A stretch of 64,000 nt of DNA, taken from Folioceros fuciformis (taxonomy: Eukaryota). The stretch's first letter is position 1. Each line of letters opens with the position of its first letter. A program made the position numbers and the translations under genes. Shown here one piece after another: positions 25,631-60,094 of this stretch. The notes beneath the pieces were generated by a model. The model was not told where the DNA came from, did not search any database, and saw nothing but the letters and a program-made list of their open reading frames with translations. The stretch covers positions 1 through 64,000 of the forward strand of contig JBNGIO010003079.1 in NCBI GenBank assembly GCA_049999805.1, written 5' to 3'.

Positions 25631-26935
25631 TCAGTTGGATACCATGGTTTCTGTCTCCTTCACAAATCCCTCACCAGTCCATTCCTTATCCGAAGCCAGT
25701 CCCCTCCGTACTGCCTTCTTCTTTTCTATAGCTTCTCTCTGAAGCCTTACAAGTTCAGTATGCGTTGTAAAATACTGTAGAGACGCACCACGGAAATCCT
25801 CAATGGAATTAAAACTGTGTTTTGCCATGAACGCCTTCAACTCATCACACATTGTCTTGATATGGGAATAGCCGTGCACCATAACTCCTGTGCAAACCTG
25901 CACCGTGTTCGCTCCCAGGAGAAGAAACTCCGCAGCATGGTTTCCGGATTCAACACCTCCGATTCCAGACAGAGACACATCCTTGCCTGCGAAATCAGAC
26001 CTGATCATCTTGGCAATGGACATGACCTTGGCCAGAGCAATAGGTCGGACAGCCTTGGACGAGTACCCTCCCGGGGTCGAGTACCCTTCCACGCAGGGCT
26101 CTGGTCGGAGAGTGTCCAAGTTCACTCCCATCACGCTCATGACAGTGTTGATGGCGGACACGCCCTCGCAACCTGCTTCCAACGCAGTGCGCGATGGCTG
26201 CGTGATGTCGGTGACGTTTGGCGTCATCTTGGCCCAGACAGGCACCGTCGCCTTGTTGTTGATCCAGCCGCATACCTCCTCCAGCAAGACACAGTCTTGA
26301 CCTATAGCCGCACCCATCCTCCTCTCCGGCATGCCATGCGGGCAAGAGAAATTGATCTCCAGAGCATCAACACCAGCATCCTCCACTCTGGCCACGATCT
26401 CCTCCCAAGCAGCTCGGTTATACTCTTCCATCACGGAAGCGATGAGGACGCGGTCAGGATACTCCTTCTTCAGCCTCCTCATCTCCTCCAGCATTGTCTC
26501 GAACGGCCTGTCACTGATGAGCTCGATGTTCTCCCACCCGATCACCTCCTTCTTGCCCGTTCCATTACTGCTGGCATGCATGCGCGCATAGCGCGGAGTC
26601 ACGTTCACCACCTTGGAGGAGTCCAGAGCCACGGTCTTGGCTATCACCGCGCCCCAGCCCTCGTCGAATGCCCGCTTCATCACTTGATAGTTCGTCCCTG
26701 GCGGGCCTGAGCCGATCACAAACGGATTAGGCAGCTTCAAGCCGTTCACGGTGACGCTGAGATCAGGACCTGCCGCATCCTGGCTGCTAGTCCTCACTTT
26801 CAGCTGAGGCCAGCTCCGCCTAATCCGACCCGATGCTCCCCGTTCAACTCTCTCAAGATGCCGCCTCACCTCCCCTCCTACCTGATCTGAAGAGGACACC
26901 AAGCTGGATGCTCCAAATTGCTTCAAACTTGCCAT
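25631..26935 (-). CDS. PYD1: Dihydropyrimidine dehydrogenase (plastid PYD1-type), single exon
   Basis: Uninterrupted ORF with PDLSVTVNGLKLPNPFVIGSGPPGTNY, GWENIELISDRP, EINFSCPHGMPER and WAKMTPN. Transit-peptide-like N-terminus; first ATG at 26935. Confidence 0.95.
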   Translation of the reverse strand: MASLKQFGASSLVSSSDQVGGEVRRHLERVERGASGRIRRSWPQLKVRTSSQDAAGPDLSVTVNGLKLPNPFVIGSGPPGTNYQVMKRAFDEGWGAVIAKTVALDSSKVVNVTPRYARMHASSNGTGKKEVIGWENIELISDRPFETMLEEMRRLKKEYPDRVLIASVMEEYNRAAWEEIVARVEDAGVDALEINFSCPHGMPERRMGAAIGQDCVLLEEVCGWINNKATVPVWAKMTPNVTDITQPSRTALEAGCEGVSAINTVMSVMGVNLDTLRPEPCVEGYSTPGGYSSKAVRPIALAKVMSIAKMIRSDFAGKDVSLSGIGGVESGNHAAEFLLLGANTVQVCTGVMVHGYSHIKTMCDELKAFMAKHSFNSIEDFRGASLQYFTTHTELVRLQREAIEKKKAVRRGLASDKEWTGEGFVKETETMVSN

Positions 26936-27520
26936 AATCCGCCTCGAACAACCGCTCTTCTCACAGAAAATCAAGCGCAAAGCTGAGGCACTTCAAGCAA
27001 GCGTTCATCCCAAGCTACGCCACCACAGAAAAGAATCAAAAACGTAGCCGAACCGCAAGGAACACGCTCTCCTCCCCGGACTGCTGCCACCGGCCAAGTC
27101 GACGTCGACGGATCCCGTACGATCCCGCTCGCTCGCAGAATGCAGCTCAAGCTCACGCATGCAGCGTGCAGTCATGTCACACGCTCCACATTCCTACTCC
27201 CCTTCCTTGAGGCCGAAGTTCCTCGCACCGCAAAAACAGTGAGCGTTTTGCCGCCAGGTAGGCGAGCTCCGCGTGACTGACACGATTCGTGAGTCGCGTT
27301 TCATTTTTTCCGCCTTCCCTGCACTGCCTCACCTTCTGTGTCTCAGATATTTTTGGTCCTTGGAAAACAGCTTAGCACGCAAGACCTAAGGGCCGGGCTC
27401 GGGCCTAAGCCGGGCAAATTATCTTGAATTTGTTTCAGGGCTTCCTTCTTTTGGTTAAATGGTTAAGGGTACTGTATTGGACGGGACGGGACGGGACGGG
27501 ACGGAGAGGAGAGGAGGACT

Positions 27521-39808: not shown

Positions 39809-42800
39809 TGAAACCAAGAGTGTCCGAGATCTGCCTCTGTTCGTCTTGAACAACGTAGGCTGCGGCCTTGGTTGAAACTGGAGGTGCTCCTCGTCCCCAA
39901 CCATAAAGCTGTGCACCAGTCCGTCCTCATCTGTCCACCAGCTCACATGCTGATGCATCTCTCGGGTCTAGCTTCACTGCTTCGTTGAAGGCGTGGCATG
40001 CCACCTCCAGATTTCTCCACGTTCGACAGGCTCCCAACAGAGTGTGCCAAACTGCCGCACTTGATGATACAGGCATAGTTCGTATCAAATCTAGTGCCTC
40101 ATTCAGTAGTCCTGCGCCACCCAGGAGATCCACCATGCATGTGTAGTGGCTCTCTGTGGGAGTGATGCCGTCATGACTCCTCATGGCCTCGAAGTACTCG
40201 CGGCCCTCGTCCACTAGACCAGCGTGACTGCACACTGTTAGCACACTAAGGAATGTGATGCCGTCTGGCTGGATGTTGTCCTCTTTCATTGTGCGGCTCA
40301 AGTCAAACACCACCTCACTGTTCCCCTCACAGGTGTACCCTGAGATGAGAGCGTTCCACATCACGTCGTCTTTTTCAGGCAAGGCATCAAACACCTGCTG
40401 TGCGTCAACGGTGCTGCCAGACTTTCCATACATATTGATCAAACTCCCGGCTATGAATACATCCACCTGAAGCCCTTGCCCCGCAATCTGTGCATGTAGT
40501 TGCCGTCCCATATGCAGGGCGCGCTTACATTTGCACATGCCTGTAGGAGGCACACGAATGTCACCGGGTCAGGCACACCCCTGCCTTCTTCTCGCATGGC
40601 ACTGTAGAGACGAAAGGCTTCTTGACCCATACCCTGCTGAGAGTACCCTGCAAGCATGGCATTCCATGTCACCACGTTTTTTTCACCAAGTCCGGCAAAC
40701 ACTTTTTCTGCGTCTCCCACGCTGCCACACTTTGCGTACATGTTCACCAGACTGCTGGCTACAATTAGATCAGCTTGATGTCCCCCTTCGCGGATCTGCT
40801 TATGGAGTTCCTTTCCCTTCTCCAAACCGAGGGCGCCAAAAGTTGTACATGCCTGCAAGAGGCACACAAATGTCGCACAATCAGGTAAAGCCATGCCATC
40901 ATCTTGCATGGCTCTGTAGAGGCAAAAAGCTTCTTGCACCATATCCCGCTGGATGTACCCTGTTATCATGGCATTCCACATAGCCAAATTTTTTAGACCG
41001 AATTTGTCAAACACTCGTCGAGCGTCCATCAAACTGCCACACTTTGAGAACATGTTTACCAAACTGCTGGCTACAAACGCGTCACCTTCGTATCCCCGTT
41101 TTCTGATCTGCGAATGAAGCTCCTTCCCCTTCTCCAAGGCTGGAGTGCCCACACCTGCACAAGCCTGCAGGAGGCACATGAATGTCACAGAATCAGGTGA
41201 AGCCATGCCCCCTTCTGGCAATGCACTGTACAAACAAAGGGCTTCCAGCCCTGTGCCCTGCTGGGCATACCCTGCTATCATGGTATTCCAAGTCACAAAA
41301 TCTTTTTGACCAAGTCCATCAAACACTTTCTGGGCATCCTCCAAACTTCCACACTTTGCATACATGTTCACCAAACTGCTAGCTACGAACCCATCAGACT
41401 CATGACCTTGTTCTCGGATCTGCATATGAAGCTCCTTGCCTTTCTCCAGAGCTGAGGAGCCCACACTTGCGCATGCCTGCAGGAGGCATGCATATGTCAC
41501 GGAATCAGGTACAGCCATGCCTTCCTCTTGCATTGCACTGTACAGACCAAGGGCTTCCTGCCCCATACCCTGCTGGGAGTACCCTGCTATCATGGCATTC
41601 CACGTGACAACATCCTTTTGTTTGAGTTCCTTGAACTCTCGGTGGGCATCTTCAAAGCTGCCGCACTTTGCATACATGTTCACCAAATCGTTGGCTATAT
41701 ACACGTCTGCTTCATGTCCTCCTTCTTTGATTTGCTCGTGGAGCTCTTTGCCCTTCTCCAGAGCTTGGGGCCCCATACTTGCACATGCCTGTAAGAGGCA
41801 TGAAAACGTCATCAAATTAGGTGAAGCGAAGTCTTCCCCTATGAGAGCACCGTAGAGACGAAGGGCTTCCTGCCCCAAGCCCTGCTTGGCATACCCTGCT
41901 ATCATGGCATTCCATGTCACCACTTCCTTCTGACCAAGACCATCAAACATTATCTGAGCATCGTCCAAGCTCCCACACTTAGCATACATGTTCACCAAAG
42001 CATTAGCTACAAACCCATCGCCTTCATGTCCGTGCGCCTTGATTTGTGCATGAAGGTCTTTCCCCTTCTGCAGTGCCAGGTTGCCCACACTTGCACATGC
42101 CTGCAGGAGGCACAAGAATGTCACAGAATCGGGGACAACACCACCCTCTTCTTGCATTGTAGTGTAGAGACGAAGGGCTTCATGCCCCTTGCCCTGCTGG
42201 GAATACCCTGCAGTCATGGCATTCCAAGTCACCAGATCTTTATGACCAAGTCCATCAAACACTCTCTGAGCATCCTCCAAGCTGCCACACTTGGCATACA
42301 TGTTCAACAAACTGCTAGATACATACACATCACCTTCGTATCCTTCTTCTCTGATTTAGGTGTGAAATTGCCTCCCCAGCCCCAACGCATGGGTTCCCAC
42401 ACTTGCACAGGCCTGCAAGAGGCTCACATATGTCATGGAATCTGGTAGGACTACACCTTCTTCATGCATAGAACTGTAAAGACGAAGGGCTTCCTGCCCC
42501 ATTCCCTGTTTGCAATACCCTGCTATCATCGCATTCCATGTTACTACATTTTTTTGACCAAGCCCGTCAAACAACCTCTGAGAATCCTTCAAGCTGCCGC
42601 ACTTGGCATACATGTTTACCAAGCTGCTAGCAACAAACACATCACCTTCGATTCCTCACTCTCGAACCTGGGCATGACGCTGCCTCACCTTCTTCAACCC
42701 TGGTGTTCCCAAATTTGCGCATGCCTGCAGGATGCTTGCATATGTTACAGAGCTGGGTACAGCCGTGCTTCCTTCTACCATAACGCTGTAGAGTCGAAGG

Positions 42801-43875
42801 GCTTCCTGCCCCAGCCCCTGCTGGGCATGCCCTGCTATCAATGCATTCCACATCACCCCATCTTTTCAACCCCATCAAGCCCAACTCCATCAAACACTCT
42901 CCGCGCTTCTTCCAAGCTGCCACACTTTGCATACATGTCCACCAAGCAACTAGAAACAAACAAATTATCCCCAATGCCACTGGCCAACACATCAGCATGC
43001 ACCTGCTGCCCAGTTTTCAAATCCAATCCTCTTCCACAAGCCTGAAGTGCTGCTACAAACACATGCCCATTTGGCCTCACACTAGACCCACACATTCTCC
43101 GATACAACTCTATGGCCTCCTTGTATCGTCCATGTCTGACGTGTGCAGAAAGTATGGCAGACCACGTGAACGTATCCGGCTCAGCAACAGCATCAAACAC
43201 CTCCACCGCATCTTGCAACCTGCCATGCGAAGCGTACATTCTCAGGACGTGAAATGCCAGGAAAGTGTCTGACTCGTACCCCTTTCTCACCACAAAAGCA
43301 TGTACCCGCCTACCAAGCACAAGATCTTTGCTTCCAACACATTCTTTCAGGACAGCATACAAGAGAGACCCTGAAACCTCACAATCTGCCTGTACCAGAC
43401 CTTCCAAAGCCTCCACAGCCTCAGTGAGATGCCCCTCCTTACATAGCCTGCTGACGGTTTCAACAGTCACGCCCCTACCGTCACCTGCAGGCCTGCGACA
43501 GTCAGGATCATCTAGTAAGCTCCTGTTAAAGCCACAACGACCCATCCCCATATCCAGAGCAGCAAGCTGTACACCCACCCAACCGGGCTTGCAGAAGTCG
43601 TTTAACCAGAGAACCTCGTGAGACTGCCAGTCCAGGAAGTCTGGCCACCAGAGGCTCATCGCGATCAGCACGTTATCCCACCAAACTGTTGGGTCCTCGA
43701 AGAATTGTCTCCACAAAGCTTCCTGGCGAGGTGGGCAAGCCCTGTCTCCAGCTACACATCTTCTTTGCCTTGCAAAGATACATAGCTTCCAGACTTGGTT
43801 GTGCGCCAGCAGTTGATTCCTGGAGGACATGCGAGCAGAAGCTCTTCGTAAAATAACCATCACGCCACCGGCCAT
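39809..43875 (-). pseudogene. Disrupted PDF-motif + PLS-class PPR-E gene with WW-type PG-box; paralog of 44083-48177
   Basis: PPR reading frame is split across ORFs 42853-44064, 42656-42856, 42356-42640, 40451-42328 and 39927-40553. An in-frame TAA lies at 42356-42358, E2 is partly deleted, and SWWTDEDGLVHSFMVGD is out of frame at ~39893-39943. Confidence 0.88.
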
Positions 43876-44082
43876 GGCATGGCCTGAGCCATGCATCCAA
43901 GCCGCACGAACCCATCGCTTGTAATCACTGCCTCTCATAAATGCAGGTGAGCCAAAAAGACGAACGGATTGGATACAAACGCATGTTAGAAACAACTTAG
44001 CTACTTCCATGAGTAATGAAAGCAAATCGAGTGCGCAGCGACAGTGAGCGCTTGTTGCATCCATGGCGGGCCAGCGTGTGTC

Positions 44083-47000
44083 ATGGCTGCTGGCCTAACA
44101 GACATTCTGGGAAGAGCTTCGGCTCGTCTGTCGTCGAAAAAAAAGCTTTGTTCGCACAACCAGCTCGAGAGATGGAGCAACTTGGCACCGAAGCCAAGTG
44201 GACTCCTGGCTGCAGACGGATCTTCCAGCGAGGGTGGTCGCCAGGAGTATTTGTGGCGGCAGTTTTTCTGGGACCCAACATTGTGGTGGGATAACAGGGA
44301 ACAGAAGAGAAGCTTCCGAGCTCCTGACTTCCGGCACAAGCAGTCCCAAGAGGACCTCTGGTTGAACAATTTTCACAAGCCAGCATGGGTGGATGCGCAT
44401 CTTGCTGCACTGGATATGGGCATGGGGCGTGGGGTCTCCAACAGGAGGTTGCTGGATGATCCTAACCACGAACGTGTGGGCGTCACGACCGAAACTTTGA
44501 GCAGGCTATGTCATGAGGGCCATCTCACCGAGGCAGTTGAGGTTTTGGAGGCACTGGTGCAGACAGAGGTCTGTGTTTCTGGATCTCTCTGTTACGCTGT
44601 GCTGAAGAAATGTGTGTTGAAGAAGGATCTGGTGATGGGTACCCGCGTGCATGCTCTCACGCTGAAACTTGGGTACCAGTCAGACACGTTTCTGGGTTTC
44701 CACACCCTGCGGATGTATGCTGCTCATGGCAAGTTGCAAGATGCGGTGGACGTGTTTGAGGCCGTTGCGGAGCCTGATGCCTTCACGTGGTGTGCAATTA
44801 TTTCTGCGCATGTGAAGCATGGACAAGACAAGCAGGCTGTGCGACTGTATCATCGGATGCGCCGGTCCGGTGTGAAGCCAGATGGGCACGTGTTTGTAGC
44901 AGCGCTTCAGGCTTGTGCAATGGGATTGGACTTGATATCTGGACAGCAGGTGCATGCCGATGTGTTGGCCACTGGTATGGAGCGTAATTTGTTCGTTTGT
45001 AGTTGTTTGGTGGACATGTATGCCAAGTGTGGCAGCTTGGAAGCCGCTCAGAGAGTATTTAATGGACTTGTTCAAAAGGATGTGGTGACGTGGAATTCCT
45101 TGATAGCAGGGTACTCCCAGCAGGGCATGGGGCAGGAGGCTCTCCGTCTGTACAGCGCCATGCTAGAAGAGGGCCTGGTTGTACCCAACTCCGTTACTTT
45201 TGCATGCCTTTTGCAGGCTTGTGGCAGTGTGGGTAACCCTGCGCTGGAGACGGGGAGGCAGCTTCATGCCCAGATCGGAGAACGAGGACATCAAGCTGAT
45301 GTCTTCGTGGCCAGTAGTTTGGTAAACATGTATGCCAAGTGTGGTAGCTTGAGGGATGCTCAGGGAGTGTTTGATCAACTTGGTCCAAAAAATGTAGTAA
45401 CATGGAATGCCTTGATAGCAGGGTATTCTCAGCAGGGCATGGGGGAGGAAGCCCTTGATCTTTACAGTGCTATGCTAGAAGGAGGTATGGCAGCACCCGA
45501 TTCCGGGACATTTGTGTCCCTTCTGCAGGCATGTGCACGTGTGGGCACCCTCGCACTGCAGAAAGGGAAACAGTTGCATTCACAGATCAGAGGAGTCGGT
45601 CTTGAAGCGGATGCGTCTGTAGCCAGCAGTTTATTGAACATGTACGCAAAGTGTGGCAGCTTGGAAGACGCTGAGAGTGTGTTTGAGGGGATTGATCAGA
45701 AGGATGTGGTGATGTGGAACTCCATGATAGCAGGATATTCCCAGCAGGGCATGGGCCAGGAAGCCCTTCGGCTGTACAATACAATGCAAAACGAAAGCAT
45801 CTCTGTACCAGACTCTGTTACGTTCATCTGCCTCTTGCAGGCATGTGCAAGTTTGGGCACCCAGGCATTGCAAACAGGAAAGCAGCTTCATGCAGAAATT
45901 AAGGAACGAGGTCATCAAGCTGATTTGTTTGTAGCCAACGGTTTGGTGAACATGTATGCGAAGTGTGGGAGCCTGGAAGATGCTCAGAGAGTCTTTGATG
46001 GACTTGGTAGAAAAGATTTGGTTACGTGGAATGCTATAATAGGAGGGTATTCCTATCAGGGTATGTTGTCAAAAGCCCTTTGCCTCTACGATGCCATGCA
46101 GGAAGAGGGCCAAGCTGAACCTGATTCTGTGACCTTCGTGTGCCTCTTGCAAGCTTGTGCAAGCCTGGGCGTCGCAGCATTGGAGAATGGGAAGGAGCTT
46201 CATATGCAGATCAGAAAGAGAGGACATGAAGCTGACGTGTTTGTCGGCAACAGCTTAGTGAGCATGTATGCAAAGTGCGGTAGCGTAAAGGATGCACACA
46301 GAGCGTTTGATGGACTTGGCCAGAAAAATGTGGTGACATGGAATGCCTTGATAGCAGGATATTCCCAACAGGGTATGGTGTGGGAAGCCCTTGGTCTTTA
46401 CAGTGCTATGCTAGAAGGAGGTATGGCAGTACCTGACTCCGTGACATTTATGTGCCTTCTACAGGCATGTGCAATTATGGGCACCCTGGCATTGCAAGAG
46501 GGAATGCAGCTTCATGCACAGATCAGAGGAGCTGGATATGAAGCCGACGTTTTTGTAGCCAACAGCTTGGTTAACATGTATTCAAAGTGCGGCAGCTTAG
46601 AAAATGCTCAGAGAGTCTTTGACAAACTTGGAAAAAAAGATTTAGTGACATGGAATGTTATGATAGGAGGGTATTCACAGCAGGGAATGGGGCAGGAATC
46701 TCTTGATCTATACAATGCTATGCAGGACGAAGGCACGGTTGCACCTGACTCGGTGACATTTGTGTCCCTCCTGCAGGCATGTGCAACCATTGGATCCCCG
46801 GCCTTGGAAAAGGGGAAACAACTTCACGCAGAGATCAAATCACTGGGATATGAGTCTGATGTTTCCGTATTGAACAGTTTGGTGAAAATGTATATAAAAT
46901 GTGGGAGTTTGGAATATGCGCAGGGTCTGTTTGACGGAATCGACCAAAGAGATGTGGTGACTTGGAATGCCATGATAGCAGGATATTCTCAAAACGGTAT

Positions 47001-48177
47001 GGGGCAGGAAGCCATTCGTCTCTACAGTGCTATGCAAGAAGATCGCAGGGCTGTGCCTGATTCCACGACGTTTGTCTACCTCCTGCAGGCGTGTGCACGA
47101 ATCGGCTCTCTGGCATTGCAGAAGGGTAGGCAGGTTCATGCTCAAGTCAAGGAACGAGGGCATCAAACTGATGTCTTTGTGGCCAACAGTTTGGTAAACA
47201 TGTATGCAAAGTGTGGGAGCTTGGAAGATGCTCAAAGAGTGTTTGACGAACTCGACCAAAAGGACCTGGTAACATGGAATGCCATGATAGCAGGGTATTC
47301 CCAGCAGGGTATGGGACAAGAAGCCCTTTGTCTTTACCATGCTATGCAATCACAAGGCATGGCTGTGCCTGATTCCGTAACATATGTGTGCCTTCTCCAG
47401 GCATGTGCAAAAGTGGCAGCTTTGCATTCAGGAAGGCAGGTACATGCACAGATTGTAGCTCAAGGGCTTCAGGTGGATGTGGTTATAGCAGCCAGTCTGA
47501 TTGACATGTATGGGAAGTCTGGGAGCATGGTTGACGCACAGCAGGTGTTTGATGCTTTGCTTGAAACAGACGTCGTCGTCTGGAATGCTCTCATTGCAGG
47601 CTACGCCAGTCAGGGCGACAGTGACGTGGTCTTTAACTTGGTCCAGAGAATGGAAGACGATGGCATACAGCCAGACGGCATCACACTGTCCAGTATACTA
47701 ACAGTTTGCAGTCATGCAGGCCTGGTGAACAAGGGATGGGAGTGCTTCGAGGCCATGAGCAGACACTACTGCATCCCTCCTACCGAAATACATTACACAT
47801 GCATGGTAGATCTCCTAGGCCGTGCAGGCCAACTGAATGAGGCACTAGATTTAATAAGCACAATGCCTTTACCGCCCAGTGCTGCAATTTGGCACACCCT
47901 GTTGGGTGCTTGTCAAAAATGGAGCGATGTGGATGTGGGACTCCATGCCTTCAACGAGGCAGTGAAGCTAGACACAAAAGATGCTGCAGCATATGTGTTG
48001 ATGTCGAACGTATACACCGGTGCCCAAATGTGGGACTGGGCACACAAAATGCAAACAAAGAGAACAAGAGTCAGGGCATGGAAGCCAGCAGGCCTGAGCT
48101 GGTGGACGGACAAGGAGGGACTGGTGCATAGCTTTTCGGTTGGGAATACGAAGCTTCTTCCCAGCATGCAAACGTGA
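44083..48177 (+). CDS. Intronless PLS-class PPR protein: targeting peptide + OSB-type PDF motif + ~32 PPR motifs + E1-E2 + WW-type PG-box, no DYW catalytic part
   Basis: Repeating P (DVVTWNAMIAGYSQQG), L (PDSVTFVCLLQACA) and S (VFVANSLVNMYAKCGS) motifs, then P2-L2-S2, E1 AAIWHTLLGAC and E2 AAAYVLMSNVY. Ends KPAGLSWWTDKEGLVHSFSVGNTKLLPSMQT*. Confidence 0.95.
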   Translation: MAAGLTDILGRASARLSSKKKLCSHNQLERWSNLAPKPSGLLAADGSSSEGGRQEYLWRQFFWDPTLWWDNREQKRSFRAPDFRHKQSQEDLWLNNFHKPAWVDAHLAALDMGMGRGVSNRRLLDDPNHERVGVTTETLSRLCHEGHLTEAVEVLEALVQTEVCVSGSLCYAVLKKCVLKKDLVMGTRVHALTLKLGYQSDTFLGFHTLRMYAAHGKLQDAVDVFEAVAEPDAFTWCAIISAHVKHGQDKQAVRLYHRMRRSGVKPDGHVFVAALQACAMGLDLISGQQVHADVLATGMERNLFVCSCLVDMYAKCGSLEAAQRVFNGLVQKDVVTWNSLIAGYSQQGMGQEALRLYSAMLEEGLVVPNSVTFACLLQACGSVGNPALETGRQLHAQIGERGHQADVFVASSLVNMYAKCGSLRDAQGVFDQLGPKNVVTWNALIAGYSQQGMGEEALDLYSAMLEGGMAAPDSGTFVSLLQACARVGTLALQKGKQLHSQIRGVGLEADASVASSLLNMYAKCGSLEDAESVFEGIDQKDVVMWNSMIAGYSQQGMGQEALRLYNTMQNESISVPDSVTFICLLQACASLGTQALQTGKQLHAEIKERGHQADLFVANGLVNMYAKCGSLEDAQRVFDGLGRKDLVTWNAIIGGYSYQGMLSKALCLYDAMQEEGQAEPDSVTFVCLLQACASLGVAALENGKELHMQIRKRGHEADVFVGNSLVSMYAKCGSVKDAHRAFDGLGQKNVVTWNALIAGYSQQGMVWEALGLYSAMLEGGMAVPDSVTFMCLLQACAIMGTLALQEGMQLHAQIRGAGYEADVFVANSLVNMYSKCGSLENAQRVFDKLGKKDLVTWNVMIGGYSQQGMGQESLDLYNAMQDEGTVAPDSVTFVSLLQACATIGSPALEKGKQLHAEIKSLGYESDVSVLNSLVKMYIKCGSLEYAQGLFDGIDQRDVVTWNAMIAGYSQNGMGQEAIRLYSAMQEDRRAVPDSTTFVYLLQACARIGSLALQKGRQVHAQVKERGHQTDVFVANSLVNMYAKCGSLEDAQRVFDELDQKDLVTWNAMIAGYSQQGMGQEALCLYHAMQSQGMAVPDSVTYVCLLQACAKVAALHSGRQVHAQIVAQGLQVDVVIAASLIDMYGKSGSMVDAQQVFDALLETDVVVWNALIAGYASQGDSDVVFNLVQRMEDDGIQPDGITLSSILTVCSHAGLVNKGWECFEAMSRHYCIPPTEIHYTCMVDLLGRAGQLNEALDLISTMPLPPSAAIWHTLLGACQKWSDVDVGLHAFNEAVKLDTKDAAAYVLMSNVYTGAQMWDWAHKMQTKRTRVRAWKPAGLSWWTDKEGLVHSFSVGNTKLLPSMQT

Positions 48178-48759: not shown

Positions 48760-51700
48760 ATGGCCGCCGAGGGCGACCGCGTGAGGGCCCGAGCGCGCGT
48801 CCAGGTGATGGCGCTGATGCACGAATGCAGACACGCCGAGGACTGGAAGTGCAAGCAGGAAAGCCTGCAGCGCGCTCTGGACCTGGTGCTGCAGGAGGTG
48901 CCGGAGCAGCTCACGAAGCTGTTGCAGCTCCTGCTGGAGGAGCTGCATGGAGGCGGTTGGGAGCGGCGGAGTTATCTGGCGAAAGTGATGGAGCTCGTAG
49001 GGTGCAGGTTCTTCAACGAGGTGCCCGTAATGGTTACGATCATGCTGCCGACCCTGGTGCTGCTGCTGCGGGATCACGTTCCTGAGGTGGTGATGGAGGC
49101 CATGGTTGCAGCTCAGAAGCTCTTGAAACGCGGCTTCCGGGAGCTGGTTGTGCAGGAGAGGGAAGCCGGGAAGGTGGATGACTCGCTGGTTGAGGTCTGG
49201 CGGAGAATGGTTGGCGTGAAGGAGTTGGTGGCTCCTATGCTCGGCGCTAGCCATGATGTTCGGGTGCGCTCGCGCGCGGTGAAGTATTTCGAGCACCAGG
49301 CGTTGCTCTTCTCGCCGGATCCTGAGAGGTCTGGGAAAGAGGAGGAGTGTAGTGTGGCGTGGATCGAGGGACGGGTGCACCCCGTGCTGGTCGTGAGTGA
49401 ATTAGGGCAAGAAGCTGCGAACAGCGTGGATCTGCTGTTGACCATGTTGCGGGAGCCCGCGGCTTCGAAGTTGACCAGTACTTTGGTGCTGGTGCTGTTT
49501 AACAGCTTGGAAAGCATTGCTAGGAGGCGGCCGAGTTTGTTGAAGACGATCCTGCCGGGGTTGATGGATTTCGCGCCACGGTGTGAAGGTTTGAAGGAGG
49601 TCCTGGGTCGGGAATGTCTCATGGCGAACGTGATGCGATGTCTGTGGATCAATTTGAACCGCCTCCTTAAGTATTGCCAGATTTGTGCTCCAGACTTGCA
49701 CAAGCGGTTGGTGCCGCTGGTGAGAGAGATGCAGTCGGAATTTATGCCTCGACTCAGCCGAGGCCAGCGGGTAGAAAACGAGAGGGGCGGTATGGATCGG
49801 CGGGCAAGGTTGCAGGCATCTTCTTCCTCTGCTAACCCGGAGCCGGAGCTTGATCCTGGTTATCTGGATGGGGTGCGGAAGCGGGCTTTCACGCAGGAGA
49901 ATGGGGGGGCCAGGGTTGAGGGAGCCGTCGATCGTGCTAAACGATCCAAGCTGAGCGCAGGTGAGCAGGAGTTAGACTCGGCGACCAAGGTTCAGCAGGT
50001 CGTGCGATCGGATGCACAGGATGGTAGGATTCCTCAGCAGGAGTCTATGGAAGTGCAGCAGGAGCTGGTTGAAACCCAGCAGAAGCAGGTTGAAAGCCAG
50101 CAGGAGCAGGTTGAAGCCCAGCAGGAGCATATGCTGCCTCCGGAGCAGAGCCAACTCCAGCAGCTGATCGGCATGATCGCCGCAATGTTAGCAGGAGGAG
50201 AGCAAGGGGCGCAGTCATGTAGGATTCTGGTTGACAGTTTGACCACAGACATGCTGGTCGACGTATGTATTGCGAATTTCGTTCACCTGCCGGCAGTTCG
50301 TCCCCCGGAAGACATATTTAGTGCGAATTTGGCTCAATTGCCGGGAGTTGGTCCCTCGGAAGAAAGTGATTCCGAGCCCAGTTCAGCAGACCACACATCA
50401 GGGCCGGCCGATGTGTTGCCTGCCGTCCCGGTTGTGGAGCCACAGCGTACAGCACCGGAGGAGGAAATTTTTGTTTTGGACGTCGTGCCTGCTCCTACGT
50501 CCGCAGGCAGCACTGCACAGGCATTGCTGCCTCAGGCCTTGTCAGCTGACCAGACAGCGAGCTCACCTGTGACAAGGAGCGAAGAAGTGAACAGCGTGAG
50601 AGACCCGAGAGCCGCAACGGCCATAGCCACCGAAGCCACGACAGTGAGTGTCACTAGGGACACAACACCTAGTAACGGGACTCAGCCGGCAGCAGATCTG
50701 CCCAGGGCTAGGTTTGTCCCAATGAGGCTGGGGAGGGAATCACCCTCAGGATCAGAAATCAAGGAGAAAGGCAGCGATAGTGAATCACACCTCAGCCCTG
50801 CAGCACTTCCTCCCTACAGCACATGGCAAGCAACAGCAGCAGCAGCTACAGCAATTCCTCCAGATCCTCGAGGCGTCGAGGCAGACACTGGTAGCCAACA
50901 GGCAGAATCTACAGTAGAAAATGGCCCCGAGCATGAAAGGGTGCCGAATAGTGGCATCACTCCCTCGGGAGATGTAACCACGGATGAGCCACAAGATCTT
51001 TGCAAAGCATCTGTTGAGCGCATTCGACAAAGCTACATGGCAACTTCAGGTGATGGGGGCTTGCAGGCTGGTTTGATTTCTCTTCTTGAAGGTAACGCCT
51101 CCGCGCCTGTTTTCAAAGATTATTATTCGCGTCACGACGGACATGCTCTGGCCATGGACGTCCTTGCTCGCATTTGCAATTCATCAGGTGACCGTGCGGC
51201 CTACGAGTTCTTCTTCGGAAGACTCTGCCATCGCATCTTGCACGCCTTCCCTCCAGACTCCATGCTCCTCGCCAAGCTAGTGTTTGAGGCCCCGCAAGTT
51301 CCAGCATCCACCCTTTCCCTCCTGAACAGCCTCCGCCAATCCGAGGGCCGGATTGGGCAACTTCTGTTCATCATCGGCCTGCTCTTCAGGCGGGATCGAC
51401 CTGACGAATTCCGTATGCGAAAACAATGTCTGGAGTTTGTGCTTCACTGCGCAATTCACGGATTCAGTTCGCTGCGATGCGGCGCGATCGAATTGGTGGT
51501 GAAGGAGCTGCACAGCCTGCCTTGGTTCTCAGGAAGGATAGAGACCTTTGCGATAGCGGTCCTCGACCAATCGAAGTTAGTTCAGGGGAACAACGTTAAG
51601 ACAGTCGCGCTGTACATGGAGCTTTGCCGCCAAAAGGCCGAATTGTTGGCCGCTTTGTTCCCAATTTATGGGAGTCCCTCGGCGTCGTCGACCTTCCGAC

Positions 51701-52056
51701 ACGCCGTTAAATCCCAAATTACTGAAGTTGTCAGAGTCATCCGAAGGAGCCCGTCTGTGTCGGTCCTGAAGCAAATTATAAACAAATATCGACATGCATC
51801 AGGGTGCCAACATTTGATCAAGCTTATGGATGATCCCGAGGCTAACACAGGGACGATGGTGGTGAGGGGCAAGGAGGTGACGAGAAAATCAAGGGGAGGT
51901 GATGGCGGACAGGGAAGGGAAAAGAGAGGTGACAAGGGGCAGGGAAAGGAACGTTACAAAGGAGAGAAGGAAAACGGGGACGAAAGGGGCGGTAATGAGG
52001 AGAAGGGAAAAAGTTGCAGGGTCTCCGAGAGAAAGGGAAAAGGAGCAAAAGGCTGA
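48760..52056 (+). CDS. Diverged, C-terminally truncated symplekin paralog, single exon
   Basis: Collinear with 56144-60094: RSYLAKVMELVG/RKYLAEVVELVG, ECSVAWIEGRVHPVL/ECNVAWISGGHPIL, HDGHALAMDVL/HKGHELALHVL, RIETFA/KIETFA. It lacks the final ~270-aa block. Confidence 0.85.
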   Translation: MAAEGDRVRARARVQVMALMHECRHAEDWKCKQESLQRALDLVLQEVPEQLTKLLQLLLEELHGGGWERRSYLAKVMELVGCRFFNEVPVMVTIMLPTLVLLLRDHVPEVVMEAMVAAQKLLKRGFRELVVQEREAGKVDDSLVEVWRRMVGVKELVAPMLGASHDVRVRSRAVKYFEHQALLFSPDPERSGKEEECSVAWIEGRVHPVLVVSELGQEAANSVDLLLTMLREPAASKLTSTLVLVLFNSLESIARRRPSLLKTILPGLMDFAPRCEGLKEVLGRECLMANVMRCLWINLNRLLKYCQICAPDLHKRLVPLVREMQSEFMPRLSRGQRVENERGGMDRRARLQASSSSANPEPELDPGYLDGVRKRAFTQENGGARVEGAVDRAKRSKLSAGEQELDSATKVQQVVRSDAQDGRIPQQESMEVQQELVETQQKQVESQQEQVEAQQEHMLPPEQSQLQQLIGMIAAMLAGGEQGAQSCRILVDSLTTDMLVDVCIANFVHLPAVRPPEDIFSANLAQLPGVGPSEESDSEPSSADHTSGPADVLPAVPVVEPQRTAPEEEIFVLDVVPAPTSAGSTAQALLPQALSADQTASSPVTRSEEVNSVRDPRAATAIATEATTVSVTRDTTPSNGTQPAADLPRARFVPMRLGRESPSGSEIKEKGSDSESHLSPAALPPYSTWQATAAAATAIPPDPRGVEADTGSQQAESTVENGPEHERVPNSGITPSGDVTTDEPQDLCKASVERIRQSYMATSGDGGLQAGLISLLEGNASAPVFKDYYSRHDGHALAMDVLARICNSSGDRAAYEFFFGRLCHRILHAFPPDSMLLAKLVFEAPQVPASTLSLLNSLRQSEGRIGQLLFIIGLLFRRDRPDEFRMRKQCLEFVLHCAIHGFSSLRCGAIELVVKELHSLPWFSGRIETFAIAVLDQSKLVQGNNVKTVALYMELCRQKAELLAALFPIYGSPSASSTFRHAVKSQITEVVRVIRRSPSVSVLKQIINKYRHASGCQHLIKLMDDPEANTGTMVVRGKEVTRKSRGGDGGQGREKRGDKGQGKERYKGEKENGDERGGNEEKGKSCRVSERKGKGAKG

Positions 52057-56143: not shown

Positions 56144-59100
56144 ATGGCGTCGGTGCGAGAGCAGGCGGTTGCTCTGCTCAACGACGCCAAGCTCCAGGCG
56201 GACTCGTCGTCCAGGGTGGATCACCTGAAGCAGTTGATGGAGCTGGTGCTGTACCGGGATCCCGACCTGCTGGGGGAGTTCGTGCCGCACTTGCTGGAAT
56301 TCCAGTGTGAGCGGGGCTGGTTCCTGCGGAAGTACCTGGCGGAGGTGGTGGAGCTGGTAGGCATGAAGTTCTTGAAGCACGTCCCGGTGATGGTGCCGGC
56401 TCTGCTGACGCTACTGAGGGATTCGGCGGCTGCGGTTGTGCAGCGGGCCATCATCACCGCCACGCATCTCTTCGGCTACACCTTCGAGCAGCTGGTTTTG
56501 CAGGGGATCTACTCACGGCAGGTGGAGAAGTGGCTGGTTGATGCCTGGGCGGGCATGCTGAAGGTGAAGGAGGTGGTGCTCACCACCGTGGTGTTTGACG
56601 GCAACGACGTGATCCGGCTGCATGCCATCAAGTTCGTGGAGAGCGCCATTCTGCTGTTCACGCCGGATCCTAACAGCTCGGCCCGGCCCTCGCTGCAGGC
56701 GGAGGGCGCGTCCAAGGAGTGCAACGTGGCGTGGATCTCGGGAGGTCATCCCATCCTCGGCGCCAGTGAATTAGGTCAAGAAGCCAGCCGGAGCCTGGGG
56801 TTGCTTCTGGGCCAATTGAGGGCTCCAGATGTGTCGTCTCTTCCCGGCCCTGTCGCCATTGTCTTGTTGAACAGCTTAGGTAATATTGCAAAGAAAAGGC
56901 CCACCCTTTTCGGAAGAATTCTGCCTGTCTTGATTGCTTTAGGTCCCAATTGCGACGCCATCAAGGGATCTCAGGTCACCAGCGTCATCCACACTCTTAG
57001 AACCAATTTGCTAGGGTTGCTCAAGTGCACGCATCCCGGAGCTGCTCCCTGGCGAGAGCGCCTGGTCGACGCGCTGCGGGCGATGAACGCCGGGGACTCT
57101 GCGGAAGCCGCCCTTCGCCAGGTCGGACGGGTGCTGCGTGGGGCTGACAGGGAACCGGGAGGGGTTGTGGATCGACGACCTGCCGCTCCTGCTGCCAAGG
57201 ATGAGCGGTTGCAGGTTTCCTCGTCTCTCTTCATCAACTCCACGGACGCTGGGCGCAAGAGAGCCATGGTGCACGAGAATGGGAGTCAGGCAGGGGATGT
57301 GGAGGATTTGGTCAAAAGGTTGAGGCCGAATCCTTCGGCTGCTGCTGGTGCTGCGATGGCTTCCTATCTCTCGCATATGCAATCGGAGGGGCAGCGTAGG
57401 GTTCTGGGATTGAACGGGAAGGGAGCGGGAGCGGTCTCCCTGCAGCAGCAGATCAATTCCATGATCGCAAATGTGGTGTCGCAGGGGGGGCCGTATGAGG
57501 CGACCGTCGATGTGCTCATCGGCAGCATCCCGCCGGAAGTGCTTGTGGACATTGTCGTCGGTAATATGATTTACTTGCCCACGCGCCCGCCTGCGCAATC
57601 TTTAAATCCCGCGGCCGATTCCGCATATTCTGTGGACGGACCAGCCGCGACGGCTGGCCTGCGATTCCAGCAGTCTTCGTCGCATTTTGTTGTCGACGGT
57701 CGGCCGCAGCATCTGGAATCCCGTTTGCAACCTGATCTTCGGCGGGATCCAAGACGTGGGCTGGTTGCGGGGACCAGTCCATCTTTAGAGATAGACGCGG
57801 GAGTAGGAGGAGTTGCGGGCGTAGGGGCAGTAGTAGCGAAAATCGAGAGAGCGGATCTGGTGAAGATAGAGGAGTCGACATACCCTGGCAGCAGAGATCC
57901 CAGGGGAGCGGGTCGGGGTCAGGCATCTCATTTGCCTACGGCTAAATTCAGGCCTATGCCCATCAAAGTGGAGTCAGTTGACAATGCCCCTCAAGCTCAA
58001 GGAAGTGAGGATGGAGCATCTTCAGCAATGGGTTTATACGGAGATCTTTTAAGGCCCCCTTTAGTCATATCTGCTCACTCCGTTCCCCCTTCACATATCC
58101 TCAGGCTTGAGGATCTCACCACTGCGCTCAGTGCTGCTAAAGAGGGACAGCGTAGTGTTGCGACGTCCGTACCAGGGCCTATACCTGTTCTCCCTCTCCA
58201 CGTTGAGCAGCAGTCTGCCCTTTGCAAGAGGGCTGTCATGCGAATTTTGGAGAGTTACAAGGCTGTTGAAGCTGCGGGGAGAGGTGACTTGCGCATGGCA
58301 ACGCTTGCTCGATTGGTGTCTCAGTCTCGAGAGGATGGTGTGCTGGATGTGTTCCGGAAGTATTTGTTGGCAGATTATCATGGCCACAAGGGTCATGAAC
58401 TTGCTTTACATGTGCTCTATCAGCTCTATGTGGGGCAAGCTTTCGATTCGGACAGCCCTCCAAACCTTTCGGAGATACATCCTGCTTATGAGAGTTTCCT
58501 TCTCTCACTGGCTGAAGGTCTCAAAGACACACTGCCTCCTTCTGACAAGTCTTTGAGTAGATTATTTGCAGAGTCACCAGTGCTACCTGGATCAGGTCTC
58601 AGGTTGCTCGAAGGTCTTTGCATTCCCTCCTCTCAGGTAAGGGATGAGAAGGAAGTTTTGAGTGCCGAACGCATAACCCAGGGGCTAAGTATTATTTGGA
58701 GTCTCATTCTGCAGAGGCCTCCAGTCAGGGAGACCTGTTTAAGAATTGCACTGCAGTGTGCAGTACACGAGCATGAGGCTGTAAGAACTAAGGCTATCCG
58801 ACTTGTTGCAAACAAGTTGTTTCCTCTTAGCTATGTTGCACCCAAGATAGAGACCTTTGCAACAGACATGTTGCTTTCTGTTGTTGATCCGAGAGAAGTG
58901 CCTGGTAAGGTACAGGACAGCATGGATGTAGATGCATCGACCATAGTACAGGATATGGAAACCAAGATGATGAGTGACCAGGTGAATGGCGTGGAAGCGA
59001 AACAGAGTGACGTTTTGGGTTCTGTTGTTGCTGATGAGATGACTGGTGGGGATGATGGTCAGAGGAGCAAGAGCAACCCAGCTGTGACAACGGCAGAGGC

Positions 59101-60094
59101 ACAACGTTGCATGTCTCTCTTTTTTGCCTTGTGCACCAAGAAGCATGCCCTACTAGGGCAGCTGTTCAGCGTATACGGCCGTGCCTCCAAGGAGTTCAAG
59201 CAGGCTGTGAAGCAGAGGATGCCACTTGTTGTGCGATCCATAGGGGCCTCATCTCCTGAGCTACTGACCTTAATAGCCAATCCTCTGCCTGGCAGCTCAA
59301 ATCTGCTGCTGGGCGTGTTGCATAGCATTTCGGAAGGCGGTACAATGTCCCAGGAGTTGATCTCCACAGTTAAACAACTGTATGAAAAGCTCCATGATGC
59401 TAGTTTTCTTATCCCAATTCTGTCCTCTTTTTCTAAAGAGGAGGTCTTGCCCATCTTTCCCCGCCTGGTGGAGTTGCCGCCAGAAACTTTCCAAAGCTCT
59501 CTCGATCGCATTCTGCAGGGTTCTGCTCATTCTGGTCCTGCAATGACACCAGCAGAGGTTCTACTTGCCCTCCATGATATTGATCCTCGTCGAGACGCAT
59601 TGCCATTGAAGAAGATAACAGATGCTTGCTCAGCCTGCCTTCAGCAGCGAACGGTGTTTACGCAACAGGTTCTGGCAAGAGTGTTGAATCAGATGGTTGA
59701 ACAGACTCCACTTCCTTTGCTTTTTATGCGGACTGTGATTCAGGCGGTAGGTGCTTTTCCTTCTCTTGTGGACTTTGTCATGGAAATACTCTCAAGACTT
59801 GTTAGTAAGCAGATCTGGAAAACTCCAAAGTTGTGGGTCGGTTTTCTCAAATGTGCAAATCAGACTATGCCACGCTCATTTCATGTATTACTGCAACTTC
59901 CAGCGCTTCAGTTGGAGGATGCTTTAAACAAACAGCCCACCTTGAGAGCTCCTTTGGCTGCCCATGCGATGAAACCAAACATCAGGGCAAATGTTCCTCG
60001 ATCATCTTTAGTTTTGTTGGGGATTGTCCAGGATGGTCCAGCTCCTGATTCTGTTGCCCCAAGTGCTACAGCACAGGCAGAAATTCCAACATGA
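56144..60094 (+). CDS. Symplekin (Pta1/ESP4-like) mRNA 3'-processing scaffold, single exon
   Basis: N-terminal HEAT-like region (AIKFVESAILLFTPD, IAKKRPTLFGRILPVL) and C-terminal symplekin block (VFTQQVLARVLNQMVEQTPLPLLFMRTVIQA...LVSKQIWKTPKLWVGFLKC). Confidence 0.95.
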   Translation: MASVREQAVALLNDAKLQADSSSRVDHLKQLMELVLYRDPDLLGEFVPHLLEFQCERGWFLRKYLAEVVELVGMKFLKHVPVMVPALLTLLRDSAAAVVQRAIITATHLFGYTFEQLVLQGIYSRQVEKWLVDAWAGMLKVKEVVLTTVVFDGNDVIRLHAIKFVESAILLFTPDPNSSARPSLQAEGASKECNVAWISGGHPILGASELGQEASRSLGLLLGQLRAPDVSSLPGPVAIVLLNSLGNIAKKRPTLFGRILPVLIALGPNCDAIKGSQVTSVIHTLRTNLLGLLKCTHPGAAPWRERLVDALRAMNAGDSAEAALRQVGRVLRGADREPGGVVDRRPAAPAAKDERLQVSSSLFINSTDAGRKRAMVHENGSQAGDVEDLVKRLRPNPSAAAGAAMASYLSHMQSEGQRRVLGLNGKGAGAVSLQQQINSMIANVVSQGGPYEATVDVLIGSIPPEVLVDIVVGNMIYLPTRPPAQSLNPAADSAYSVDGPAATAGLRFQQSSSHFVVDGRPQHLESRLQPDLRRDPRRGLVAGTSPSLEIDAGVGGVAGVGAVVAKIERADLVKIEESTYPGSRDPRGAGRGQASHLPTAKFRPMPIKVESVDNAPQAQGSEDGASSAMGLYGDLLRPPLVISAHSVPPSHILRLEDLTTALSAAKEGQRSVATSVPGPIPVLPLHVEQQSALCKRAVMRILESYKAVEAAGRGDLRMATLARLVSQSREDGVLDVFRKYLLADYHGHKGHELALHVLYQLYVGQAFDSDSPPNLSEIHPAYESFLLSLAEGLKDTLPPSDKSLSRLFAESPVLPGSGLRLLEGLCIPSSQVRDEKEVLSAERITQGLSIIWSLILQRPPVRETCLRIALQCAVHEHEAVRTKAIRLVANKLFPLSYVAPKIETFATDMLLSVVDPREVPGKVQDSMDVDASTIVQDMETKMMSDQVNGVEAKQSDVLGSVVADEMTGGDDGQRSKSNPAVTTAEAQRCMSLFFALCTKKHALLGQLFSVYGRASKEFKQAVKQRMPLVVRSIGASSPELLTLIANPLPGSSNLLLGVLHSISEGGTMSQELISTVKQLYEKLHDASFLIPILSSFSKEEVLPIFPRLVELPPETFQSSLDRILQGSAHSGPAMTPAEVLLALHDIDPRRDALPLKKITDACSACLQQRTVFTQQVLARVLNQMVEQTPLPLLFMRTVIQAVGAFPSLVDFVMEILSRLVSKQIWKTPKLWVGFLKCANQTMPRSFHVLLQLPALQLEDALNKQPTLRAPLAAHAMKPNIRANVPRSSLVLLGIVQDGPAPDSVAPSATAQAEIPT

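Follow-up and report, generated by a model that had tools for sequence, protein, structure and literature searches.

The usual view of PPR editing factors is that they read RNA and nothing else, a targeting peptide being followed by a PPR tract and by E/DYW domains; PPR tracts read RNA 5'->3' from N- to C-terminus. The E-class factors of Arabidopsis are further members of the PLS-class RNA-editing factors. A PPR tract is joined to a second nucleic-acid module in PPR-SMR proteins (pTAC2/GUN1) and PRORP (PPR plus NYN), some of which are nucleoid-associated. To our knowledge, the PDF motif has been described solely as the part of OSB genome-maintenance proteins that binds ssDNA; among these proteins, Arabidopsis OSB2 is identical to pTAC9. 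The OSB1 and OSB2 biochemistry behind our functional reading is summarised in three reviews (PMC6963530, PMC4166229, PMC6451138): as related there, the PDF of OSB1 alone is sufficient for ssDNA binding (PMC6963530), and both proteins prefer ssDNA over dsDNA or RNA (PMC4166229). It should be noted that these Arabidopsis results concern C-terminal PDFs beside an OB-like domain, and that a PDF placed before a PPR array may behave differently.

The window analysed here is a stretch of 64,000 nucleotides of Folioceros fuciformis DNA (contig JBNGIO010003079.1). Its positions 44083-48177 (+) are an intact, intronless, nuclear-type gene for a PLS-class E-type PPR protein. We regard the identity of the parts of this protein as close to certain: a leader, one PDF, a flexible linker, the PPR array, E1 and a truncated E2. 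The gene lies head to head with a pseudogene paralogue, and the features of both are arranged as follows.

44083..48177, plus strand: coding sequence of the PDF-PPR protein (P0001), complete and intronless, 1364 aa plus stop (ORF list and translation)
44083..44250, plus strand: N-terminal leader, aa 1-56, transit-peptide-like by composition
44251..44403, plus strand: OSB-type PDF motif by sequence, aa 57-107 (profile envelope aa 54-111, 44242-44415)
44404..44487, plus strand: linker from PDF to PPR array, aa 108-135, of low model confidence
44488..47919, plus strand: PLS-class PPR array (Pfam; P-L-S triplet period ~101 aa)
47920..48102, plus strand: E1 motif, aa 1280-1340 (Pfam PF20431, E_motif)
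48103..48177, plus strand: truncated E2-like tail and stop codon, followed by no DYW domain (tblastn, Pfam)
43876..44082, no strand: spacer of 207 bp between two divergent start codons (coordinates of the ORF and of the paralogue alignment)
39855..43875, minus strand: paralogue of the same architecture, a pseudogene (tblastn of P0001)
43552..43725, minus strand: decayed PDF of the pseudogene (tblastn, 64% identity)

The ATG at 44083 matches the start of the paralogue, where residue 1 of P0001 aligns at 43875 in tblastn. A preliminary description of this DNA had placed an OSB-type PDF in front of the repeats of a PLS-E protein, and both halves of this description were borne out. Residues 57-107, translated from 44251-44403 of the plus strand, read exactly LWRQFFWDPTLWWDNREQKRSFRAPDFRHKQSQEDLWLNNFHKPAWVDAHL (51 residues); in a Pfam scan of the ORF they precede the first PPR motif, and PDF and PPRs share one open frame with no stop codon between them. 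The repeats were matched at E-values of about 1e-90 to 1e-166 (PPR_2 1.4e-166, PPR 4.6e-129, PPR_1 8e-90), each of the three models covering 13-16 stretches of the protein, and they form about 11 P-L-S triplets with repeat anchors ~101-104 aa apart. E1 scores 35.0 bits against a PF20431 cut-off of 27.3, while the DYW deaminase (PF14432) has no Pfam match in the 1364-aa protein. The C-termini of five DYW-bearing relatives align by tblastn up to 48141-48153 only, and nowhere else on the plus strand. The leader is rich in S, L and A with a net charge of +4 across its first 45 aa, a composition from which we infer organelle targeting.

Sequence comparison shows the window PDF to be a homologue of the PDF repeats that OSB proteins carry at their C-terminus. 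A word-indexed search with the 81-aa motif gave 23 candidates, none of which scored; exhaustive phmmer with the same 81-aa stretch (aa 45-125) against 1,835,955,588 representative proteins then recovered the family, with 616 matches at E<=1e-3, 158 at <=1e-10 and 15 at <=1e-30, the best E-values reaching 1e-66. Sampled matches are mostly SSB/OB-fold proteins with 2-5 PDFs at the C-terminus. An SSB/OB-fold match at E<=0.01 was present in 7 of 11 sampled non-PPR proteins, above the Pfam cut-off in five of them (P0012, P0024, P0032, P0044, P0027) and below it in P0004 and P0015. Some matches are labelled OSB1-like, OSB2-like or OSB3 by their sources. In BLASTP the window PDF shares 45% identity over 60 aa (E 1e-16) with Populus nigra 'OSB1, mitochondrial-like' (P0040, NCBI name), whose second PDF copy was also aligned, and 47% over 59 aa (E 4e-17) with Euphorbia peplus 'organellar single-stranded DNA binding protein 3' (P0046).

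The comparison with OSB PDFs that the preliminary description had proposed as a check came out clearly in its favour. An OSB-only HMM scores the window protein at 66.4 bits (aa 54-111, aligned to positions 4-60 of the 64 in the profile), against 16.5 bits for the best of 200 shuffled N-termini. For this HMM, 226 PDF segments were taken from 77 multi-copy proteins without PPRs among the search matches, rather than from Arabidopsis OSB1-4. The core aligns without gaps to 12 PDFs from 5 proteins of OSB architecture and keeps the full consensus LW...F..P..WWD.R..K....P..PDFKHK...E.LW......P.WV...L, with the Pro-Asp-Phe signature at aa 81-83. Across 28 sequences W58, P65, D70, P81, F83, W93 and W102 are invariant and further W/F positions nearly so; every invariant position is present in the window PDF.

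In spite of this likeness the protein is not a member of the OSB family. It shares with OSB proteins the ~50-aa PDF but, whereas those combine an SSB-like OB-fold with C-terminal PDFs, it has a single N-terminal PDF followed by a PPR array and no OB-fold: neither PF00436 nor any other Pfam domain was matched in aa 1-166 at E<=1. PLS-class E/DYW editing factors such as moss PPR56, as described in PMC10482289, share the P-L-S array, E1, the intronless gene and the leader; they have only a targeting peptide before the array, where our protein has a folded PDF, and differ from it further in its truncated E2 and missing DYW. In PPR-SMR and PRORP proteins the extra domain is an enzyme, sits at the C-terminus and has no sequence relationship with the PDF. 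Yet another comparison is offered by WHY1, a Whirly protein and plant organellar ssDNA binder which, according to PMC2532728, also binds RNA and acts in RNA metabolism; Whirly proteins are unrelated to ours in fold and sequence and have no PPR fusion, and they serve as a precedent for cross-talk between a DNA-binding module and RNA processing.

An AlphaFold2 model predicts the PDF region to be compact, with confidence (50 residues at pLDDT>=90), and composed of two helices (aa 50-63 and aa 101-113) with short strands between them at aa 68-70, 83-85 and 91-92. The linker, model residues 71-96 (aa 110-135), has pLDDT block means of 62, 51 and 59 and falls below 50 at aa 118-122. A sequence search of the PDB returned unrelated proteins, the best at E 0.18; Foldseek of the PDF model against the PDB gave no match at E<=0.001, VIA-align against 48,161 chains a best Z of 3.7 with none at Z>=5, and the ESM Atlas no usable match. 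As no solved structure resembles the model, the predicted fold offers no hint of function; such an absence of relatives is no proof of a new fold.

The preliminary description took the protein for a chimera. This holds in so far as the PDF is fused to the PPRs in one ORF, but it is no one-off: 29 other PPR proteins carry 1-3 N-terminal PDFs, at least 12 of them together with a DYW domain. Such proteins made up 11 of the 150 phmmer matches listed (out of 616 at E<=1e-3), 13 of 119 N-terminal homologues and 5 of 17 homologues found with a Ceratodon query. The named taxa are Sphagnum, Ceratodon, Calypogeia, Diphasiastrum, Adiantum and Pteridium, comprising at least nine named species, and in Pteridium aquilinum two transcriptome ORFs (P0073, P0134) show the same fusion. 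None of the 18 proteins returned by the Ceratodon PDF-PPR-DYW query (P0242, aa 1-260) was named Physcomitrium, which is weak evidence since that search was word-indexed. Judged by these relatives, the gene is a member of a PDF-PPR family conserved in the non-seed land plants (mosses, liverworts, lycophytes and ferns). These lineages parted more than 400 million years ago.

In the N-terminal part of the family's proteins, conservation is highest in the PDF: among 16 single-PDF members (120 pairs) mean pairwise identity is 49.6% in the PDF, 19.7% in the leader, 27.3% in the linker and 31.5% in the next 40 aa. In P0033, P0088, P0139, P0300, P0305, P0073 and P0201 the PDF begins at aa 3-25, which leaves too little room for a transit peptide; truncation of the gene models or a different mode of targeting may lie behind this. 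Closer to the window, contigs of two other organisms span 44272-44802 at ~90-93% identity, which shows that related species have kept the region. A tree was made of 105 PDF segments, 35 of them PPR-linked. In it the PPR/OSB label changes 3 times, shuffled labels need 29.5 changes on average and none of 500 shuffles goes as low, and all 35 PPR-linked PDFs lie within one clade of 95% SH-aLRT together with 7 OSB PDFs. By this clustering and nesting they look like OSB PDFs and not like a divergent look-alike. Pfam holds no PDF model, and an OSB survey of 2026 demanded PDF and OB-fold together in its methods (PMC13393729); PDF-PPR fusions thus stayed invisible. None of the papers listed in full-text searches of the literature deals with such a fusion, and the family is apparently undescribed so far.

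How might such a protein work? The preliminary description suggested a factor that binds DNA as well as RNA and is tethered to nucleoids, transcription bubbles or R-loops, a reading that leans on the biochemistry of OSB1 and OSB2. In the version that we favour as an inference, after import into the organelle and removal of the leader, the PDF would keep the property of the OSB1 and OSB2 PDFs, sequence-independent binding of single-stranded nucleic acid with ssDNA preferred. It would then act as an accessory anchor concentrating the factor at the nucleoid or transcription site, and there the long PPR tract would bind the particular nascent RNA that it recognises. It counts against this that the window PDF is only weakly basic, with 8 K/R against 7 D/E as counted by eye. 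The anchor role itself we put forward tentatively, as somewhat less likely than not; the explanation as a whole, comprising the PDF-PPR identity, the family and the organellar anchor mechanism, comes just short of an even chance. The further suggestion that a deaminase is recruited to ssDNA does not suit this gene, which encodes none, and is conceivable only in trans or for the DYW-bearing relatives. Editing of a target C would likewise need a DYW protein in trans.

A PDF standing beside PPRs could instead bind RNA and not DNA, with no link to the nucleoid. Given its position N-terminal to the tract and the polarity of PPR reading, it would clamp ssRNA just 5' of the PPR footprint, raising affinity or keeping the target unfolded. 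The homology and conservation data cited for the anchor speak for this too, and a linker of ~25 aa makes the PDF adjoin the first PPR. RNA is a poorer ligand of OSBs than ssDNA, but PMC4166229 does not describe RNA binding as absent, and a precedent is given by WHY1, from an organellar family of ssDNA binders for which RNA binding has been reported as well (PMC2532728). Against it stand the ssDNA preference of OSB PDFs (PMC4166229) and the PPR-linked PDFs themselves, which by keeping the OSB consensus and nesting among OSB PDFs give no sign of a change in specificity; we consider the clamp unlikely, though worth serious attention. Distinctly improbable in our view is a role of the PDF as a protein-protein or oligomerisation module that docks OSBs or other PDF-bearing proteins, or dimerises PPR factors. 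OSB2 is a reported tetramer (PMC6963530), and PDFs can be arrayed in tandem, with as many as 13 matched stretches in a single protein, as is often seen in interaction repeats; the reviews, however, assign ssDNA binding and not oligomerisation to the PDF (PMC6963530, PMC6451138). The invariant residues also speak against this role, being mainly aromatic (W58, F83, W93, W102). Aromatic residues are typical of base-stacking surfaces.

It is also conceivable that the family is functional elsewhere while the PDF, perhaps the whole gene, is a decaying relic that does nothing specific here. The truncated E2, the missing DYW and the pseudogene twin indicate that the intact gene may itself be decaying. 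The inverted paralogue has HSPs in three frames (-2, -1 and -3, at 63%, 65% and 61% identity) and in-frame stops at 42658 and 42358 and, in the last HSP, at 40571 and 39929. No run on record as RNA contains the stretch among the listed holders. The hope of the preliminary description that RNA would confirm an unspliced exon has yielded a hint only: in run X3, which is RNA by guess, a contig is colinear with 44141-44619, with no differences and no gaps; X3 lacks cover over 43884-44140, where the DNA run X1 continues, which is at most a weak indication. What makes decay improbable is that the 1364-codon ORF is still open, that the region recurs in the ~90-93% identical contigs of two other organisms, and that the PDF has every invariant position, unlike the pseudogene copy (66.4 versus 40.7 bits with the OSB-only HMM). 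The latter retains LW..FF.DP..WWDN and PDF, while the basic core R..K..P / KHK is gone. Moreover, PPRs of the E type are established in other plants as working editing factors even where they lack DYW.

A chance resemblance, or an artefact of assembly or gene model joining two unrelated genes, was ruled out, and we give it a negligible probability. It is contradicted by the phmmer E-values, by the single continuous ORF in raw DNA, by an independent DNA contig (run X1) that spans 43500-44735 across the PDF-PPR junction with 0 differences, and by the same fusion in the other named species, including the two fern transcript ORFs.

A PDF before a PPR tract suggests that RNA editing is physically connected to organellar DNA or to transcripts just being made at the nucleoid. 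The PDF is, moreover, a mobile domain not confined to OSBs. A wider reading, which we hold to be decidedly unlikely, is that an ancient PLS/DYW subfamily reaching from liverworts to ferns uses its PDFs to couple site-specific editing co-transcriptionally to organellar ssDNA at the nucleoid, bubble or R-loop; in the boldest version of this, the DYW deaminases of the subfamily would act on ssDNA as well as RNA. If the PDF raises on-target affinity or recruitment, it might be of use in engineered PPR editors.

The OSB-type PDF (Pro-Asp-Phe) motif that the preliminary description placed before a PLS-class PPR array is encoded as claimed: its 51 residues are the exact translation of window positions 44251–44403 (+). 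The protein that carries it, P0001, is encoded by an intact gene lying head-to-head with a paralogue:

39855–43875, minus strand: inverted paralogue of the PDF-PPR gene, a pseudogene, aligning to nearly the whole of P0001
43876–44082, no strand: spacer of 207 bp between the two start codons, from their coordinates
44083–48177, plus strand: uninterrupted P0001 ORF of 1364 codons, from ORF listing and translation
44251–44403, plus strand: PDF motif, aa 57–107 of P0001, by translation
48175–48177, plus strand: stop codon of P0001, downstream of the region aligned by the C-termini of DYW relatives

Pfam content of P0001 is restricted to PPR-type families and one E motif (PF20431, aa 1280–1340, 35.0 bits versus a cut-off of 27.3). 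There is no Pfam match to the DYW domain (PF14432), and in tblastn the C-termini of five DYW-bearing relatives align on the window only up to 48141–48153, before the stop. We therefore assign P0001 to the E-type PLS-class PPR proteins, with a shortened E2, in agreement with the identity first proposed; it differs from the DYW type by the absent DYW domain. Without an OB-fold and with its PDF at the N-terminus, it is not an OSB either. The first 166 residues have no Pfam match even at E ≤ 1. Pfam holds no PDF model (the OSB-like proteins scanned matched SSB only), and PDF-PPR fusions are probably unannotated for this reason.

An exhaustive phmmer search of 1.84 billion representative proteins with aa 45–125 gave 616 matches at E ≤ 1e–3, including 158 at ≤1e–10 and 15 at ≤1e–30. 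Most of the matches listed are proteins of 200–600 aa in which the query matches 2–5 times towards the C-terminus, and 7 of the 11 non-PPR matches scanned contain an SSB/OB-fold family at E ≤ 0.01 (five of them above the Pfam cut-off). This combination, SSB/OB-fold with C-terminal PDFs, is the OSB architecture according to reviews (PMC6963530, PMC4166229, PMC6451138). Source names among the matches include ‘protein OSB1, mitochondrial-like’ (Populus nigra), ‘organellar single-stranded DNA binding protein 3’ (Euphorbia peplus) and ‘protein OSB2, chloroplastic-like’ (Phalaenopsis equestris). By BLASTP the PDF of P0001 matches both PDF copies of the first two, with 45% identity (E 1e–16) and 47% identity (E 4e–17), respectively, over 59–60 aligned aa. 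A profile built solely from OSB-type PDFs (226 segments from 77 non-PPR, multi-copy proteins), akin to the OSB1–4 profile proposed at the outset, scores P0001 at 66.4 bits over aa 54–111, while the best of 200 shuffled N-termini reaches 16.5. The whole consensus is kept and the core is gapless in the alignment with OSB-type PDFs. Every sequence feature tested is present, which places the motif in the PDF family.

Two database proteins show other arrangements: P0043 (Coptis chinensis, 1526 aa) has a kinesin motor domain and three matched PDF stretches, and P0004 (Kingdonia uniflora, 1160 aa) has 13 such stretches and a sub-threshold SSB match. They may be gene-model fusions or further PDF domain combinations.

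Other fusions, for which a scan had been suggested, appeared in three result sets. PPR proteins with an N-terminal PDF account for 11 of 150 among the phmmer matches listed, 13 of 119 homologues of the N-terminal 330 aa and 5 of 17 homologues of a Ceratodon member (one of the five being weak); besides the two window copies, the matches listed in these three sets comprise at least 29 PDF-PPR proteins. By source name they belong to mosses (Sphagnum compactum, S. jensenii, S. fallax, Ceratodon purpureus), a liverwort (Calypogeia fissa), a lycophyte (Diphasiastrum complanatum) and ferns (Adiantum capillus-veneris, Pteridium aquilinum). In Pteridium the fusion is present on mRNA, both of its entries being ORFs from a transcriptome. 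Members carry one to three PDFs (three in P0005 and P0170, two in P0033, P0300 and P0301), and at least 12 have a DYW domain. None of the PPR matches named Selaginella, Ginkgo or angiosperm contains a PDF; as it was the PPR part that brought these matches in, this is weak evidence of absence.

Over the 120 pairs formed by 16 single-PDF members whose leaders reach 40 aa or more, identity averages 49.6% in the PDF, versus 19.7% in the 40-aa leader, 27.3% in the 40 aa after the PDF and 31.5% in the next 40. A quick maximum-likelihood tree was also made from 105 PDF segments: 33 from 26 PDF-PPR proteins, both copies in the window and a random sample of 70 OSB-type segments, with PPR proteins P0162, P0183 and P0299 omitted for partial motifs. 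The PPR label requires three changes on it, as against a mean of 29.5 after shuffling (as few in 0 of 500 shuffles), and one clade with 95% SH-aLRT holds all 35 PPR-linked segments together with seven OSB segments. Its alignment has only 65 columns, and resolution is poor; a single ancient fusion, or a small number of them, would fit this tree but is not proved by it.

Sequencing runs also cover the junction. A DNA contig of run X1 equals 43500–44735 without differences, and a 479-nt contig of run X3, which has the same organism label and is guessed to be RNA, equals 44141–44619 without differences or gaps, so the PDF-PPR junction is colinear in these data; no run matching the stretch is on record as RNA. 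Contigs of X4 and X8, under two other organism labels, span 44272–44802 (PDF and first PPRs) at ∼90–93% identity (9 differences in 92 nt, 14 in 205, 23 in 290), indicating that the region is kept, and orthologues are present, in related species. That the fusion is chance or an artefact is hardly credible; sequence comparison confirms PDF plus PPR as a real, conserved combination, a family rather than a one-off.

An AlphaFold2 model of aa 40–135 (window 44200–44487; 28-row alignment) has a mean pLDDT of 78.3, with 50 residues at ≥90, and predicts the following elements of P0001:

aa 50–63: helix
aa 68–70: short strand (WWD)
aa 83–85: short strand (FRH)
aa 91–92: short strand
aa 101–113: helix
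after this helix: low-confidence stretch, pLDDT <50 at aa 118–122

Since a compact, confident part is followed by a low-confidence stretch, the PDF looks like a small independent helix-strands-helix domain with a flexible linker to the PPR array. Foldseek found no solved relative at E ≤ 0.001, VIA-align against 48,161 chains none either (best Z 3.7), and the PDF stretch has no sequence match in the PDB; the fold itself seems structurally uncharacterised.

The observation of a PDF on a PLS-E protein stands, and the interpretation first given to it is supported in part. The leader of P0001 is S/L/A-rich with a net charge of +4 over 45 aa and is probably an organellar presequence; in that case the PDF would stay in the mature protein. 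Reviews state that the PDF of OSB1 suffices for ssDNA binding and that OSB1 and OSB2 prefer ssDNA to dsDNA or RNA (PMC6963530, PMC4166229). No consensus position is lost in the PPR-linked PDFs, and in the tree they fall among those of OSB proteins. From this homology and the leader, the role that we tentatively consider the most likely is that of a sequence-independent single-strand-binding anchor; it would gather the factor at the nucleoid or the site of transcription, and there the PPR tract would meet its nascent RNA. Since P0001 has no deaminase, editing would require a DYW partner in trans. That the PDF instead binds RNA on the 5′ side of the PPR footprint is rather unlikely, and a role as protein-protein module appears more doubtful still.

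A further reading, of low probability, is that the family is functional but the P0001 gene a relic in decay. Its ORF is uninterrupted. The neighbouring paralogue, starting at 43875 (–), 207 bp from the plus-strand ATG, is a pseudogene: its alignment to P0001 is broken across three reading frames and runs through in-frame stops at 42658, at 42358 and at two further positions close to the end. In its PDF the basic core (R..K..P and KHK) is gone, and the profile score is 40.7 bits versus 66.4 for the intact copy; a six-frame profile scan of the 64 kb found these two PDFs only.

The combination is apparently undescribed: our literature search found no description of the fusion, an early mention in the founding paper (Zaegel et al. 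2006) being possible. A 2026 OSB survey demanded PDF and OB-fold domains together and so could not report PDF-PPR proteins (PMC13393729). The fusion adds an architecture to PPR editing factors.

Elsewhere in the window, tandem long intronless ORFs at 48760–52056 (+) and 56144–60094 (+) both contain Symplekin/PTA1 N-terminal domains, the Symplekin C-terminal domain being found only in the second (1316 aa). Genes this long without introns are unusual for a land plant; the two ORFs may be retrocopies or a sign of an intron-poor genome. An intronless 449-aa ORF at 25631–26980 (–) carries a dihydroorotate dehydrogenase domain (E 2e–34).
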